DNA from: Eledone cirrhosa
Lineage: Eukaryota
NCBI GenBank assembly: GCA_964016885.1
Contig: OZ024741.1
Location: forward strand, 177,692,001 to 177,756,000
Direction: 5' to 3'
Length of the DNA stretch: 64,000 bases
Made by a program: the position numbers and the translations under genes. Position 1 is the first letter of the stretch; each line of letters starts with the position of its first letter. The notes below the pieces were generated by a model. It saw nothing but the letters and a program-made list of their open reading frames with translations, had not been told where the DNA came from and ran no database searches. This document shows, one piece after another, positions 2,535 to 11,139 of this stretch.

Positions 2535-3357
2535 ATAAATTAATAAAATAATGAATAAACAAAGAAACTGTTCCTCATATTAAAAAAATTCTTCATTTTA
2601 CGATCGTTTCTAGGATATATATGTGTTAGAGTTGGTATGCATATTCTATAGATCTATGTACAATATTTATACAAACTATCGGAGGGAATATACATACCTA
2701 CACATATATATGCTGTCTTCGGAAATAATGATATTTTTTTTTATTGAAAAAGACAAAGATTCAATACAATAGGTCTGTTTGGGAACAGGTTTTGAATTGA
2801 CCAATAGAGAGATAGTGAGGGTCAAGATAGTAATATAGTAGTAGAAGAACCTTAAATTATGGGTAGAGAGAGGTAGATTTCAGTTTTGGATGGAAAAGAA
2901 TATTATGAATGAAGGATTATTTTAGGGAAGAAATAGGTCTTATGCTGACCTCAGAAATAATTTTATTTGTTCATTGAATAAAACCAACAAAGATCTAATA
3001 TATTCTGTCTGTTTGGTTAGAGGTTTAGAATTAACCGATAGAAAGTTAATAATTCGCCAAATGGTAAAATAGTAGTAATTGAGGCTTATTTTAGGGGTGA
3101 AAATAGGTCAGGTCAGTAAAAGGTATACAAGCAGTTGCTGTTATGAAATAGTAATGCCAATGCAAATATCTAAGGACACTAAAGTTTTACGATAAGAGTG
3201 TTAGTGAAAAAAATACATCTATGAAAAGAATATTAATTAATTTAATTGATGGTTATATTTATATTGATAAAATTATACTAATGCATATAGATATGATAAA
3301 TAAGAGTTAGATGCAGTTGAAAAGATGAGGGGAAATTAAAAGAATATAAAAATAATA
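2535..3357 (-). repeat. PLE-A 3' pLTR
   Basis: Near-identical direct repeat of 6514-7350. Confidence 0.9.
2594..2730 (-). ncRNA. Type I hammerhead ribozyme with ~105 nt stem II (CCGAAGA core variant)
   Basis: Minus strand: attt-CCGAAGA-[atatatatgtgt..acacatatatat]-GAAAC-GATC-GTA-aaat. Confidence 0.7.
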
Positions 3358-3366
3358 TATATATAT

Positions 3367-3403
<37 letters not shown>

Positions 3404-3777
3404 TATATACACATACACACACACATATACAGACATATATATATATATACACACATATATATATATATATATATATACACGCATATTTACATACATACAT
3501 ATACACATACACACACACATACACACTTACATATACATATAATTATTGGGGAGGGATTAAATTTGTTAGTGAGAAATAATAAATATATATAGATTTCAAG
3601 GAACATAGAGTCATAACCTGAAGTTAAAGCATTATATATGTTTACTTAATGGTATCAGTTTTAGGAAATGATAGTTGTAAGAAGGAAAGTAAAATTATGT
3701 AGTTCATCAGTAGTATAATATTAATTATAGGTTAACTAAATTAAAAACAATTTATATATTAATTTCTAAAGTGTATA

Positions 3778-6232
3778 TTAATTAGGTTTATAATATTTAA
3801 CGGTTTTTCTCAGTTTATGATTACACGATATTATTAATTTCTGTCGCTTATTCAATAGGATATCCTTAGATTTCATTATTTCCAAAAGTTCTTGGGAAGA
3901 TAATCTACATTCATATCTACTATTTTGATAAGGGTGGCCCTTTTGAGCACACTCCAGGTCAGGTCATAATCTATATTCCTCTTTCTATAACTATTAATTA
4001 TTTCAGCTAGAGATGTTGTATTAGCTAGTGCGGCATTTTTAAAACTATGTTTGTGGGTATTAAATCTTACCTTAAATTTGTTAGAGGTAGCTCCTATATA
4101 TGAATAAATTGAGTCCTTAGTGTTAACTTTACATTTATATACTATGTTATTAACAAGGCAATTTCCTTTTAATGGACAGTTTGCCTTGTTTCTACAGTTA
4201 CAACTTTTCGTGAATCCTGTATCTGAGGAGACATTATGGTTAGTTTGATGTACTGGTGGTATACTCATGGTTTGTTTACATTTATATGCATTATAGGCAC
4301 TTATATTTTGTTTTATGTTTTTGGTTGTTGAGTAGGAGAATTTAACCGTTGATCTATATAAAATTTGATGGTATTTGTGGTTTGGCGGGAAGTTTTTCTC
4401 TAGGATATTAAAGAATTTTTTAGGTATATTATCCTTAATTTGTAAATTAAATGGAGCATTATACCAAGTAACTCGTCTATTACGGTTTCGATGTTGTTTA
4501 TTGTTTTTATAGGATGCATCCTGATGTTTATTAAGAGAATTATTGTTAATGACCTCACCACACACATTTTTAGTTAGATTTATTGATTTAGGTGTTTTAG
4601 CTTGTTTATTAGGAGTTTTATTATTAACATTTATTAGAGTTGTAGGATGAGTAGTTTTTTGAGAGTTACTATATTGTATATTAGAAGAGTTAGAGAAATT
4701 TGGTTTTATGTTGGTGTTTTGGGGTATAGTGTGAGTGGCATTTAGGTGTGTATGTTTCATTTGGTGTTTGTTGGTAATATTAGGTTGTATGTTTGTAGTG
4801 TTATTGGTAGAAGGTATATATACTAATCTATTTTTGTGGCCACTTCTAGCTAGAGCTTCGTTATAAAAGGTCGCATTTTTATCAAATATATCTTGGTTAG
4901 ATGAAAGGTTAGAAATTCTAAGTGATATATTATATGCAAGGTTTTTAAGGATAGATTTAGGGTGATTAGATTGTGAGTGTATGTAGTGTAAATTTTGGTT
5001 GGGTTTATGGTAAGGTTGGTAGATACCCGTAGATAAGTCTAATGTTATATCTAGGAAATTAACTACTTTACTTGTGTTTTCAAATGTAATATCTAGACTA
5101 TAATAGTCTTTAAGGAAAGTTCTAATAAGCTTTTTATTTGTTTCTATCTCTGAGAGGCTAAGGTTATTGGAAAGAAGAAGACAGTCGTCACGATATAAAC
5201 CACCTTTAAGGTGGGGACAGAAAGCATTTATGTTAAAAAGAAGAAAGAGGCCCACAAGATCAGTAATTTGGGCAGAATCGCTTGAGCCCATAGTAATATC
5301 GAATAGATTACTATATGTGTTTCTGGTCCAGTATTCATTCTGAAATTCCAATAGTGTTAGTCTAGCATGTGTAATAATATTAATGTCATCCAAAGTTAAG
5401 TTAGATCTATTTTTAGCAAATATCAAGGCTTTGTTCAGGAGTATAGGTGATATAGAATAATAATAATTATCTATATCAAATTGTAGAAATGAAGCAGAGG
5501 ATTTATTTCTAATATTATTAAACCAGTTAATTACCTGGGATGTCTTTTCCCAGAGTGGTAAATTAACATGTTTTCTTAGTTGTGGGATGACTCTATCTAA
5601 AAAATGTTTACTAATTATTCCAATATCAGATTTGGAAGGGCATATAAGCCTTATAGAAGGATTAGAGTTAAAGTTAGATTTATGATCTTTCAGGTTGAAG
5701 TGTGGTCTTTGCAATGCCAAAGGTTCAGTTCTATCTTCAATATTAAGTCTATTCACTATGCTGTGTGTTTTGTTGTTGATGTTGGTAAGTGACGCATTGT
5801 TTGTTTTTCTATAATTTTTCCTGAGTTCTTTATATATGAACTCATTGTAATTTTCAATATCCATGTGATATAGATTTCCAGTTTTGTCCGAGTCGACATG
5901 GATTTTTTTAAATTTTTTTAGGTTCAATAGGGTAGAATCAAGGTCCTTTTGAAAATTAGATTTATACCTCCTAAATTTGAGGTGTTTGATTAAATTAAAA
6001 AGGTCTTTCTCAAAGTGTTCAAGTAAAGAGTTGTGTGGTGGATGTTTTTGTGTAGTGAAATCATACAAATATTTCCTATCAGTACATTTTTTTTTTTTTT
6101 TTGGAAGTGGTAGGCCCTCCATCTGACTCTTCTGATAAATTGGTTGGTTTTTTGTATCATAAGAAGTAAGAAATCATCCTTAGAAGGTAATGGTATATTC
6201 TTTAAAGAAGTTCCCAAGTATTGTTTTTCCAT
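3778..6232 (-). pseudogene. PLE-A RT/GIY-YIG ORF with two frameshifts
   Basis: MEKQYLGTSLKNIP N-terminus (ORF 5990-6253) shifts at the poly-T near 6090 into ORF 3876-6122 (SDKTGN, FDIDNYY, ITMGSSDSAQ, LYRDD, FLDI, CNCRNKANCPL, IVY..YIG..FKVRFNTH). The C-terminus continues in another frame (ECRL..LLNKR..CNH) to TAA at 3778. Confidence 0.88.
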
Positions 6233-6513
6233 TGTGATATGGATAATGGACAAGAAAAAGAGCTCAACTATTTATATATGGAGTTATAAAGTTATACACA
6301 TATATGTATATATATATAAATATATATACACATACAGTATAAAAATAAATATATCCCCATGAAAATAGGAGCAAAGTATGTAGATAAATCTACCAAAAGT
6401 TTACGGTAGTGTCCAATCCGTATGAAGAACTCGATGTAATCCGGATATCATGACAAGAGAAGATGCATTCAAAAACTACTTTCGGTGAAAAATAAACGGA
6501 AAACAGAGTCAAG

Positions 6514-7350
6514 ATAAATTAATAAAATAATGAATAAACAAAGAAACAGTTCCTTATATTAAAAAAAATTCATCATTTTACGATCGTTTCTAGGATATAT
6601 ATGTGTTAGAGATGGTATGCATATTCTATAGATCTATGTACAATATTTATACAAACTATCAGAGGGAATATACATACCTACACATATATATGCTGTCTTC
6701 AGAAATAATGTTATTTGTTTATTGAAAAAACAAAGATTCAATACAATAGGTATGTTTGGGAACAGGTTTTGAATTGACCAATAGAGAGATAGTGAGGGTC
6801 AAGGTAGTAATATAGTAGTAGAAGAACCTTAAATTATGGGTAGAGGAAGGTAGATTTCAGTTTTGGATGGAAAAGAATATTATGAATGAAGGATTATTTT
6901 AGGGAAGAAATAGGTCTTATGCTGACCTCAGAAATAATTTTATTTGTTCATTGAATAAAACCAACAAAGATCTAATATATTCTGTCTGTTTGGTAAGAGG
7001 TATAGAATTAACCAAAATAAAGTTAATAATTGGCAAAATGGTAAAATAGTAGTAATTGAAGCTTATTTTAGGGGTGAAAATAGGTCAGGTGGTCAGTAAA
7101 AGGGATACAAGCAGTTGCTGTTATAAAATAGTAATGCTAATACAAATATCTAAGGTGACTAAAGTTTTACGATAAGAATGTTAGTGAAAAAAATACATCT
7201 ATGAAAAGAATATAAATTAATTTAATTGATGGGTATATTTATATTGATAAAATTATACTAATACATATAGATATGATAAATAAGAGTTAGATACAGTTGA
7301 AAAGTGCTGTTAAAGATGAGGGGAAATTAAAAGAATATAAAAATAATATA
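6514..7350 (-). repeat. PLE-A 5' pLTR
   Basis: Near-identical direct repeat of 2535-3357. Confidence 0.9.
6574..6710 (-). ncRNA. Type I hammerhead ribozyme with ~105 nt stem II
   Basis: Minus strand: attt-CTGAAGA-[long stem]-GAAAC-GATC-GTA-aaat; palindromic loop 3. Confidence 0.78.
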
Positions 7351-7359
7351 TATATATAT

Positions 7360-7753
7360 ATATAAGTATGTAGACGTACATACATATATGTATACCGACG
7401 TACAGTAGTATGTATATATATATATACATACATGCACACATATATATATGCACGTATGGATTCACCGAATATTTATTATAATGCTCGGTGTGTTTGTAAA
7501 CAAACATCCCGTATTAAGCCGTAGTGTCTAGCAACCACCGTTGCTCGTTTGTTCAACACTGACAAAGGAACGCTGTACTAGTTTCAAGCTTCTTAGCTAT
7601 CACACCGAGCATTACAAACACACCGAGCATTATAATAAATATTCGGTGAATCCACACGTGCATATATATATATGTGCATGTATGTATATATATATATATA
7701 CATACTACTGTACGTCGGTATACATATATGTATGTACGTGTACATACTTATAT
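7360..7753. repeat. Fold-back 1: ~140 bp inverted arms (7360-7499/7612-7753)
   Basis: Arms are reverse complements with a few mismatches. Confidence 0.9.
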
Positions 7754-7809
7754 TTAAGTAAGAGCCGTACTAAGAGCGGGAAATGAAATATCGTTTCATT
7801 TTTTCCGTT

Positions 7810-7888
7810 TATATATATATACTTATATATATATATATATATACACATATATATACACATACACACACACATATACACACATATATAT

Positions 7889-7969
<81 letters not shown>

Positions 7970-8283
7970 CATGCATATATACATACATATATATACATTA
8001 ATATCCTAGAGAAAAACTCCCCGCCAAACCACAAATACCATCAAATCTTAAATAGATCAACGGTTAAATTCTCCTACTCAACAACCAAAAACATAAAACA
8101 AAATATAAGTGCCTATAATGCATATAAATTTAAGTGTGTATGTGTGTATATATATGTATGTATGTATGTATATATGCATGTATATGTATATATATATATG
8201 TATATGTGTATATATATGTGTATATATGTGTGTGTGTATGTGTTTATATATGTGTATATATATATATAAGTATATATATATAT
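7810..8283. repeat. Fold-back 2: microsatellite-like arms around an inverted PLE-A ORF fragment (~7998-8130)
   Basis: Spacer is the reverse complement of ~4281-4411; arms resemble the PLE-A 3'UTR microsatellite (3350-3520). Confidence 0.75.
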
Positions 8284-8289
8284 TATTTT

Positions 8290-8773
8290 TAAACAATTAA
8301 GTTAAAAATGTACATCCACATATGTATACTGAAATACTAGTATGCATATGAATACACACACGTGTACATATGTAGATGTACCGAGTTTTTCACTGGAGAC
8401 TTTACTGTGAGTGTTCAGCTATTCTGTATGTAAACACACAGACAAACCGGTTTTTAGAGTCATACTGCTTTTACGATTCTCTAGAAAGGCCGGAGGATAG
8501 GTAAATATTGCTGATGAGATGTAACAACATCGAAACTAGTCCAATATTCCTGTCTGGCTTTCTGGAGAATAGAGGAAAGGTGTTTCCTCGAAAACCAGTA
8601 TGACTCTAAAAACCGGTTTGTCTGTGTGTTTACATACAGAATAGCTGAACACTCACAGTAAAGTGTCCAGTGAAAAACTCGGTACATCTACATATGTACA
8701 CGTGTGTGTATTCATATTCATACTAGTATTTCAGTATACATATGTGGATGTACATTTTTAACTTAATTGTTTA
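8290..8773. repeat. Fold-back 3: ~185 bp inverted arms (8290-8475/8589-8773)
   Basis: Arms are near-perfect reverse complements. Confidence 0.92.
8504..8548 (+). ncRNA. Minimal type I hammerhead ribozyme (canonical core, GUC site after 8541)
   Basis: aatattg-CTGATGA-gatgt aaca acatc-GAAA-CTAG-TC-caatatt; stem I extends to 8476/8570. Confidence 0.9.
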
Positions 8774-8944
8774 AGCGTCAGTCATACAAAAGTGAGTTAC
8801 AAACGAAACGAAATTTAATTTCGTTTCGTTATTTATTGTTATATTATTTTTATATTCTTTTAATTTCCCCTCATCTTTAACAGCACTTTTCAACTGCATC
8901 TAACTCTTATTTATCATATCTATATGTATTAGTATAATTTTATC

Positions 8945-9107
8945 ACGACTTCTGATATACCATTTACGTGGTTTTGTCTTTGCGTGCTATTGTTCTCCAC
9001 GCACCACATATGACGTATTATCTTCGTTTTTTTTTCGTTCATATGTGGTGCGTGGAGAACAATAGCATGCAAAGACAAAACCACGTAAATGGTATATCAG
9101 AAGTCGT
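8945..9107. repeat. Fold-back 4: ~69 bp arms (8945-9013/9039-9107)
   Basis: Near-perfect reverse complements; preceded by an inverted PLE-A pLTR piece (8841-8945, matching ~7246-7349). Confidence 0.9.
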
Positions 9108-9511
9108 AGACTAAAATACGTACAAACAAATACGTACATACACATGCATACACAAATACGTACATACACAAGTATACGCAGAACACTTACCATCGGTATA
9201 CAAAACCAAGAACATATAAATATGTGTGTGTGTGTATGCGTGTATACAAATAAATAAATAATTATATAAACGTATATAAATAAATAAATACGTATATAAC
9301 AAGCGCACACACATACCTAAATGTAAATACACGAATGTTTGGAGACGTAAGTCAACCAAAACATGAAGTACACATATACACACACCCTACATCCGTACGA
9401 AACTGCATACTCACACAGACGCAAAACTCCTGTATACACATAGCCAAACCATATGTTCCAGAATATGGAATATTATACGACATAACATAAAAAATCAAAT
9501 ATACGTATGAG

Positions 9512-9703
<192 letters not shown>

Positions 9704-9766: not shown

Positions 9767-10842
9767 TTAGTTATACTATTTATGGTTATAGGGGTCGCGA
9801 GGACTGCGGATTGACCTTTGGCCGGCCTGGGGATGATTATCTTTCGACATCAAATGTAGCAAGCGATGACCCAGATCTTACCAGAGATCATTGGGTCCTG
9901 AAGCAAGCCTGCAATCACCGCGCCTGGTCATATGAGCAGACTACAACCACAGAGATCATTAATTTCGAATCCTCGCTCATCATCTATAATTTCCATTTGT
10001 GGCACCTTAAGATGGGTTAATCCACCATAATAATATGATCACCTTCAGCATAACTTAATTAAACTACTCTATAGTTAATACACTTTATGCTTTAAAAATC
10101 TCTCTTGGAAGATGCGCATCACCATAGAATTTAGGGTCTATATTGGGACACATTTTAATGGCTAGATATAGAAACCCCAGAGTTACCTCCCCGCATGCAT
10201 TAACTCCCCTTTGCCACACACACACTTCCGGGCGGTATTCAATGGCGTTTCTAGAAACGTAACAACCTCCTGTATCGAACTAAAGAACACCAGACTACGA
10301 TCTCTAACTGGATTGTCGTGGATTATGTGAAGGGCATATAATCGAAAAATACACTCCCCTGACCATGAAAATGCCGAAGTACATGAAATACTTGACATCC
10401 CTGCGCTGTGCATCTCCATTACTTATAACACTTTTAATGCTTGCACTATCTTTAATGCTTATACTATTTCTCCACACACAGACTATATCAATCATATAAA
10501 GAATTTGCCACCAGATCTACCAACCTAACACTCTTATTTACCTACCTAAGTGCCTCTACCACACATATCTCTCTGCCACACTATATAAACAAGACGCACA
10601 TGCGTGCCACACATATAACATTTGCACTATATAACCGCTTATCTTCATGTTGTATTTAACCTATATTTTTGATTTTTGATTGTACCTATTAATATAAATG
10701 TAATCTCGAAGTGTGTACTGCCACTCTAAATTCTGTAATGAATGTTGACCCACAATGTTTGAATATGTATCAATGTTTGAATATGTATTGGTATGTCTCT
10801 CGGCTGAAAAGGAGGTCATATAACTGTCCATGCATTAATAAA

Positions 10843-10893
10843 TTGCTCCGAAGAATCCAAACCTCGGTTTGGAGGAAACAGCTGTAAGCACAA
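10843..10893 (+). ncRNA. Minimal hammerhead ribozyme (CCGAAGA core variant), 5' pLTR of PLE-B
   Basis: tgct-CCGAAGA-a tccaaacc tc ggtttgga g-GAAAC-AGCT-GTA-agca. Confidence 0.78.
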
Positions 10894-11139
10894 TAATGTT
10901 TTGAACAGTTCTTTCATTCTTATATTTCATATAACTGCTCTGTAAATCATCCGATGTTTTTACATTGAGCTACTTAACTTACTGGTAATAAGGTAGTAAT
11001 ACAATACTGCCTAACACTATTTAGGGTGAGTGTAAAATACTTACAACTGCTTAAGGTCTTGTATTTACATAACCATAAATAGTATAACTAATACTATTAA
11101 CTGCTCCATATCGTTGAGCTGACATATACTATTGCCAAT

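Follow-up and report, generated by a model that had tools for sequence, protein, structure and literature searches.

Organization of the array

The window, meaning the whole stretch of 64,000 nt analysed here, comes from the 3.0 Gb genome of Eledone cirrhosa and contains four consecutive fold-backs, HP1 to HP4, directly beyond the 5' pLTR of a Penelope-like element (PLE), PLE-A. The arms of HP1 (7357-7499 and 7612-7756) are identical in 139 of 145 alignment columns, those of HP2 (7813-7992 and 8103-8283), which are largely microsatellite, in 153 of 184, those of HP3 (8289-8476 and 8588-8774) in 184 of 188, and those of HP4 (8937-9013 and 9039-9117), which enclose a loop of 25 nt, in 76 of 79. 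The spacer of HP1 contains stem II, GAAA, stem III, and the cut site of a hammerhead without the CUGAnGA half. Spacer 2 is the inverse of PLE-A ORF positions 4276-4411 (132/136 identical), and the hammerhead of spacer 3 (8493-8563) matches Rfam HH9 with an E value of 2.5e-5 and 34.2 bits, below the gathering score of 52; the z score of its fold is -4.9. Between HP3 and HP4 lie the inverse of PLE-A pLTR positions 7245-7350 (105/106) and a palindrome with 14/14 pairs. The array is composed of pieces of four high-copy, (TA)n-associated families, namely PLE-A, a second PLE designated PLE-X, and the short tandem units R423 and R465 (Table 1).

Much of the inventory in the original prediction is thereby borne out: the four fold-backs, the 3' half of a hammerhead in spacer 1, the inverted PLE-A ORF piece in spacer 2, and the inverted PLE-A pLTR piece are all present. 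The predicted arm lengths agree in general, HP4 being slightly longer (79 columns rather than ∼69). The 29-nt palindrome exists but belongs to the R465 unit, and spacer 3 does hold a complete hammerhead, though not of an unrelated family as had been proposed, since both hammerheads come from related families. Most of the spacer DNA is the portion of one arm that is absent from the other arm. An origin of each hairpin as a MITE was considered and rejected, as the arms range from 29 to 4889 nt, the inner junctions are variable, the ends are unequal, and there are no constant-length terminal inverted repeats. Rfam microRNA matches over the hairpins were also set aside, being far below gathering scores and caused by TA/CA repeats or by any long hairpin.

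Table 1. Features of the array in window coordinates. P and D denote the proximal and distal sites described in the text; unit, position in the R423 or R465 tandem unit.
Feature	Position	Strand	Description
PLE-A main arm	2535..7357	-	3' pLTR, microsatellite, ORF, tail, 5' pLTR
PLE-A 3' pLTR	2535-3359	-	ends at P adjoining (TA)n
PLE-A internal microsatellite	3360-3540	-	
PLE-A RT/GIY-YIG ORF	about 3876-6232	-	frameshifts near 6090-6103 and near 3880
PLE-A tail and 5' pLTR	6377-6513 and 6514-7350	-	
R423 left arm	7357..7601	-	unit 403 to 225, end at P; hammerhead 3' half
R423 right arm	7612..7812	+	unit 77 to 281, end at D
PLE-A left arm remainder, own microsatellite (HP2 left arm)	7813..7997	-	
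PLE-A ORF piece 4411 to 4276 (spacer 2)	7998..8133	+	innermost part of inverted arm
PLE-A microsatellite, inverted arm (HP2 right arm)	8134..8291	+	first TSD copy 8279-8291
R465 left arm	8289..8472	-	unit 50 to 233, end at P
R465 right arm	8466..8842	+	unit 390 to 301, end at D
PLE-A pLTR piece, inverted arm	8840..8945	+	second TSD copy 8840-8852
PLE-X pLTR piece, inverted (HP4 left arm and loop)	8945..9042	+	
PLE-X copy, 5'-truncated	9039..9519	-	without normal 3' end; then (TA)n

Elsewhere in the window, direct pLTRs of 1144 bp (99.8% identical) surround an open Hydra-type ORF of 832 aa at 9790-15132 (PLE-B), and a different RT-like fragment at 1-1640 is truncated by the (TA)n at 1640.

The Penelope-like elements

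The PLE-A ORF contains DKT, CxCX5C, RWR (a variant of RWK), CxxC/CxH around conserved E and N, plus a GIY-YIG-like region at the C terminus, and the flanks of family loci identify (TA)n as its target. A Pfam search of the ORF returned no family; the motifs, which are those listed for the Hydra clade, indicate that PLE-A is probably a Hydra-type PLE. On the minus strand, the pLTR region ∼6570-6710 has a predicted hammerhead-like fold (z -4.5) with stem I, both core halves, and a stem II of ∼100 nt, a motif that the short-stem hammerhead scan did not pick up; folding of L021:1935-2040 missed the hammerhead and is uninformative. A second, diverged repeat lies at 6918-7075. The 3' pLTR has 22 private differences in 826 nt versus 10 in 837 nt for the 5' pLTR (p = 0.03), with ten A-to-G changes on the plus strand versus one T-to-C, plus an 11-bp deletion. 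A divergent subfamily as the source of these 22 differences was looked for and discarded (best other match 95%); one idea for the A-to-G excess is editing of antisense RNA.

Copies of the PLE-A family have a microsatellite upstream of the pLTR, and the HP2 arms are PLE-A's own microsatellite; HP2 and the inverted pLTR piece are the inverted 5' end of PLE-A. Spacer 2 meets the microsatellite through a 6-nt microhomology, which implies an internal jump or deletion in the second arm of PLE-A, and the arrangement at 7997/7998, in which an inverted ORF piece adjoins a microsatellite, also occurs at L168 and L191. Spacer 2 differs from the adjacent PLE-A ORF at one polymorphic site, 4362, a weak hint that it may not have been copied from that ORF. 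The candidate explanation of spacer 2 as a separate mini-element was rejected, the last 17 nt of the query being matched in 0 of 39 other scored loci.

HP4 derives from the pLTR of PLE-X (976 candidates). It is a tail-to-tail structure that starts at the non-canonical PLE-X positions 1569 and 1598, is absent from the other loci among the best 40 scored PLE-X candidates, and has arms neither of which is a plain copy of the other. The PLE-A pLTR piece stops at a non-canonical point with microhomology to PLE-X, so that HP4 joins PLE-A where the PLE-A distal end (∼870 nt further) and the PLE-X 3' end (∼320-430 nt) would be expected. We interpret HP4 as a scar left by repair at the second end of the PLE-A insertion, or else as the product of a later deletion. 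It is also possible, but doubtful, that at this junction alone the RT truly jumped, from the RNA of PLE-X to that of PLE-A, in an array otherwise formed by nested insertion: both X-derived arms switch template at about the same PLE-X position (1493-1497), and the arms are not plain copies of each other. Against such a jump stand the tail-to-tail arrangement, the non-canonical starts, and the rarity just described; moreover, microhomology-mediated repair of a resected end can mimic an RT-jump junction and gives the same pattern. The PLE-X copy has a 74-nt internal deletion, which was rejected as a spliced intron since its junction is unlike a splice product.

The retrozymes R423 and R465

R465 is a dispersed 465-nt tandem unit with 2412 candidates, the best 40 of which were scored (262 matches among them); the unit includes the HP3 spacer, the HP3 right arm, and the 29-nt palindrome. 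R423, the source of HP1, has a unit of ∼425 nt (periods 418-428 nt) and 1613 candidates, of which again the best 40 were scored. Arrays of both contain from 1 to more than 10 units. R465 and R423 have GC contents of 0.36 and 0.37, and the longest ATG ORFs in the dimers, 68 and 53 aa, mark them as non-coding. The hammerhead core pattern is intact in 70/72 R465 units and 82/95 R423 units. In Rfam, R423 gave no ribozyme match at E 0.001 and HH9 matched R465 alone, below the gathering score, so that the hammerhead assignment of R423 follows from the core pattern and homology to R465; the two units align over their length with a score of 231, versus a best score of 68 in 100 shuffles. Target site duplications (TSDs) exceed 4 bp where visible, with 13 bp in the window and 12-15 bp at L125, L145, and L114. 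On these testable features R423 and R465 appear to be two related non-LTR retrozymes with a type I hammerhead. In the window, the R465 right arm carries a complete type I hammerhead (∼8493-8563) and the palindrome (8802-8830) as a tail hairpin, and the R423 right arm includes a 56-nt tail that the left arm lacks.

A two-sequence profile applied to the window and the fetched loci recovered only further retrozyme subfamilies and no PLE pLTR homologue, and no autonomous partner PLE of R423 or R465 was found among the fetched loci. Subfamilies 70-84% identical to R423 occur at L011, L118, L122, L127, L130, L137, L138, and L154, and some R423-like subfamilies sit in tandem arrays with inversions. 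Long R423 arrays at L101 and L102 have recurring internal deletions (unit ∼82-316 and 192-388), which suggests local tandem amplification besides retrotransposition. Inner junctions of R465 recur near unit position 50, at the base of the long hammerhead stem, in 4 of 23 head-to-head copies (the window at 8466-8476, L142, L121, and L127), and the 50/390 junction of the window is found again in L142; the RT may stall near position 50. Both families have an octamer-like ATGCAAAT motif downstream of the distal site (R465 unit 335-345, R423 unit 317-327), which may resemble snRNA-type promoter elements of newt satellite 2.

Two fixed ends and their pairing

From the best 40 candidates of each search, 28 R465 and 28 R423 loci were mapped on unit coordinates; since every search was sampled at its 40 best-scoring candidates, the copies of all four families are young ones. 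Head-to-head insertions make up 22/28 R465 and 14/26 R423 loci (two R423 arrays exceed the stretch), together 36/54; among the sampled loci the fold-back is the norm for both families. The outer ends fall at two places far from the hammerhead cut, at unit 218-233 (P) or 298-301 (D) in R465 and at 221-225 (P) or 280-281 (D) in R423. PLE-A likewise ends at 6514 or 6377 (39 loci), and the two end sites of PLE-X are separated by 76 nt (38 loci), so that the distance from P to D across the four families is 56-137 nt. This interval, the tail, contains a hairpin in R465 (z -3.2) and R423 (z -2.2), and folding of the PLE-A tail gave no hairpin signal (z -0.1). TA-rich DNA adjoins 75/85 fixed ends, versus 4/18 5'-truncated ends and 1/5 non-canonical 3' ends.

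Head-to-head insertions with two fixed ends combine one P end with one D end in 21/21 R465 and 12/12 R423 cases (the window included in both), 16/17 PLE-A cases, and 14/14 PLE-X cases, or 63/64 over all four families, the sole exception being a D/D pair of PLE-A at L159. Taken by themselves, the 33 retrozyme cases have p = 1e-10 under independent choice at 0.5. Pairs of PLE-A and PLE-X were scored by eye and include four neighbouring insertions. Set aside from these counts were, for R423, L101 and L102 (ends beyond the stretch), three inverted copies with one non-canonical end, and 12 that are not inverted; for R465, two with a non-canonical end and six not inverted; for PLE-A, 23 of 39 loci that are not inverted, are unresolved, or have a non-canonical end; and for PLE-X, 24 of 38 loci on the same grounds, among them L204, L220, L226, and L236.

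A second head-to-head PLE pair lies at 46109-52822 of the window, with ORFs of 946 and 921 aa and arms 99.9% alike; its left end has a tail of ∼56 nt and its right end has none, which is the same one-sided rule. Tails also occur by themselves: a PLE-X tail alone lies inside the PLE-A microsatellite at L169 (∼1840-1910; the same as at L070), and tail pieces of ∼77 nt from the 46109 family lie beside retrozymes in the flanks of L121, L122, L134, and L150. Such tail-only insertions fit distal priming that halted at the proximal site.

Nesting and proposed order of the insertions

Once both retrozymes are removed, the segments 7245-7997 and 8134-8945 can be aligned as the two arms of a single PLE-A fold-back (238/300 columns match; 50 gap columns fall in the microsatellite). 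An exact 13-bp duplication brackets R465. R423 lies in an (AT)n run, where the boundaries of a TSD cannot be set, and the combined run on both sides is longer than that of the family, as a duplication would give. The two retrozymes interrupt different PLE-A arms, and neither insert is mirrored in the opposite arm. Among PLE-A copies generally the microsatellite is broken and then resumed in 5/46 (a sixth candidate, L159, proved to be a miss of the pattern), and within 1 kb of 20 of the 54 retrozyme loci lies another of six families. Dating of the insertions by divergence was tried and is uninformative, since all modules of the array lie ∼1% from their family majority; the order is therefore read from structure.

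These observations make it likely that the retrozymes landed later, inside the folded end of PLE-A, and the array is most probably a pile of separate insertions, each likely folded at landing through the probable priming of both nicked target strands on one and the same RNA from two fixed start sites. In the proposed order, a truncated PLE-X copy would already have been present in the (TA)n tract when PLE-A inserted beside it. The first PLE-A cDNA would have begun at P (2535). The second would have been primed through microhomology from the resected right flank, with HP4 left behind as a scar of repair, and would have jumped once within PLE-A RNA to produce spacer 2. R423 and R465 would then have entered the AT-rich stretch present in each PLE-A arm.

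The original prediction had instead attributed the array to repeated jumps of a PLE RT among heterologous RNAs with snap-back around each captured piece, here taken as a single event. In keeping with this, antisense PLE-X, PLE-A, and R465 follow one another along the minus strand from 9042 to 8466, the X/A junction has microhomology and no TA run, all modules are similarly diverged, and jumps inside PLE-A arms are common. The single event is nevertheless very improbable, given the 13-bp TSD around R465, the exact continuation of PLE-A to either side of both retrozymes, retrozyme ends at the canonical P and D as in independent insertions, the lack of a mirrored copy of either insert, and HP1 arms that are not contained in one another. 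Neither arm of HP1 can have been copied from the other. HP1 and HP3 belong to high-copy retrozyme families and have the ends typical of them, rather than being captured heterologous RNAs, and spacer 2 is PLE-A's own sequence. Other parts of the prediction hold: the array was likely made by Penelope-type machinery, and jumps of the RT do take place, as the microhomology at spacer 2 illustrates.

An assembly chimera of repeat-rich sequence is scarcely credible. Public short contigs and RAD reads are dominated by other copies, none of the records shown spans a unique junction, no long reads are listed, and no public run listed as containing the stretch is recorded as RNA; a chimera would accommodate the missing junction-spanning contigs and reads. 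It would not readily yield a perfect TSD, canonical ends, and private differences of 1-3% between arms, nor the same architecture at dozens of loci.

Proposed priming of both strands on one RNA

An arm copied from the other arm would lie within it, so that non-contained arms argue against copying. Neither arm is contained in the other in 7/20 R465 and 3/12 R423 insertions, i.e., 10 of the 32 tested, HP1 among them, and at five PLE-X loci (L218, L221, L227, L229, and L234) distal arms of 39-125 nt lie beside long proximal arms without a tail. Minority variants common to both arms occur at 2.5/kb within an insertion versus 0.72/kb between insertions in R465 (21 insertions; 0/5000 permutations) and at 2.3/kb versus 0.08/kb in R423 (11 insertions; p = 0.0018). 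Five variants are found in both arms of a single insertion and nowhere else, and two of the five come from non-contained cases. Between arms the difference is 7.9/kb, versus 9.2/kb between neighbouring units of one arm, which gives no sign of extra homogenisation, although gene conversion could also create shared variants. HP1 and HP3 have no variants common to their own arms in the 133 and 168 nt compared, and the same-RNA test is accordingly silent at this locus. Retrozyme copies that are not inverted end at either P or D, and thus both sites behave as start sites. The evidence points to a staggered cut whose two strands are primed one at each site, both on a single RNA or on RNAs from the same source locus.

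The mechanism that would follow begins with a staggered cut, its nicks ∼10-15 bp apart, made by a PLE RT-endonuclease complex that is probably dimeric. Of the two 3' ends, one would pair with an AU-rich site 5' of the tail and one with a site on its 3' side; the two cDNAs would converge and be joined through microhomology. The RT at the distal site may stall near the proximal site, giving arms of tail length, or may displace the first cDNA, and a single successful priming would leave a plain 5'-truncated copy, usually with a non-TA flank at its 5' end. On balance we favour the general form of this proposal, in which PLE integration is asymmetric double priming on one RNA, one strand per side of the tail, and retrozymes obey it too. 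A PLE protein assayed in vitro cuts both strands and extends them, uses two adjacent RNA start sites, and is predicted to be a dimer; the strands showed no difference in start site in that assay, which counts against the proposal (PMC11167929).

Another reading accepts the nesting and explains the arms by a single priming, fold-back copying of the first cDNA, and an endonuclease cut at the second site. Precedents in the accessible portions of the literature are the suggested 'EN-mediated resolution' (PMC8557442) and self-priming on an antisense template (PMC3846280), both for inverted PLE copies. Fold-back copying accounts for the one-sided tail and the shared variants, 22/32 tested insertions do have one arm contained in the other, and the proximal sites of the retrozymes have ATT motifs, which the in vitro enzyme is described as preferring (PMC11167929). 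It is nonetheless unlikely, as the remaining 10/32 are not contained, tail-only distal arms adjoin proximal arms without a tail, and non-inverted copies end at P or at D, both of which thus behave as start sites.

The array itself is an ordinary pile-up of known element types at an AT-rich hot spot. The pairing pattern bears on the origin of the tandem and inverted structures of PLEs, called undefined in the text available from PMC8557442, and on which element moves animal retrozymes, for which PLEs have been proposed (PMC7229834, as available). A one-sided tail is known for PLEs, and the literature search, within the text it reached, found no report of one for retrozymes; PLE-type ends together with the pairing rule would be, as judged from genomic copies, a footprint of PLE mobilisation. 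If double priming is true, it alone explains inverted pLTRs, the one-sided tail, and target duplications; if true for retrozymes, it would be direct genomic proof of PLE mobilisation, with a circular or multimeric RNA read twice. The one-of-each rule and the shared variants also make a sharp prediction for the in vitro PLE system, in which retrozyme RNAs would be handy short templates.

Comparison with known systems

In LINE-1 twin priming the second target strand primes on the RNA and a 5' inversion results. Its second site is variable and its arms do not overlap, whereas the families described here have a fixed second site and, usually, overlapping arms. The literature search, with subscription papers outside its scope, turned up neither inverted or tailed retrozymes nor the pairing rule.

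Non-LTR retrozymes were defined by Cervera and de la Pena (2020, PMC7229834), who name PLEs as candidate movers and in whose available text the word 'inverted' is absent. Li, Clavereau, and Pollet (2026, bioRxiv 10.64898/2026.07.22.740005), in the part of the preprint available, tie retrozymes to PLEs by distribution or co-occurrence and pLTR homology only, and describe phylogeny as supporting PLEs as their movers. Like animal non-LTR retrozymes, R423 and R465 are non-coding tandem units of ∼425-465 nt with 36-37% GC, one type I hammerhead per unit, a palindromic stem III, dispersed arrays, and TSDs of more than 4 bp. Unlike retrozymes in the published text at hand, they are mostly head-to-head, with two fixed ends, a one-sided tail, and a (TA)n target, and unlike those of the 2026 preprint as available, they have no pLTR homologue among the fetched loci.

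Insertions of endonuclease-bearing PLEs are described, in the available parts of PMC3846280 and PMC8557442, as a pLTR with an adjacent inverted 5'-truncated copy and a tail of 30-40 bp at one end. The head-to-head arms, one-sided tail, TSDs of 9-15 bp, and microsatellite targets are common to those elements, as there described, and to the insertions studied here; the latter differ from that description in their tails of 56-137 nt, in a pairing counted at 63/64, in private variants shared by the arms, and in the inclusion of retrozymes. Hammerheads of PLEs are described in the accessible text of PMC4209133. Start sites lie away from the hammerhead cut, which is also the case for Poseidon of Anolis in vitro (Frangieh et al., 2024; PMC11167929, as available). 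Poseidon further resembles the present families in two internal start sites that bound the tail, an AT-rich target, and cutting and extension of both strands; it differs in showing no strand difference in start site, inverted products are not addressed in that text, and its start sites lie inside the ORF rather than upstream of the start codon as in PLE-A. PLE-A shares with the Hydra clade, as characterized in the accessible text of PMC8557442, the DKT, CxCX5C, RWK-type, and CxxC/CxH motifs, the GIY-YIG-like region, and the (TA)n target, and is set apart from it by a unit of ∼4 kb (most Hydra elements are <3 kb) and a hammerhead-like stem II of ∼100 nt.
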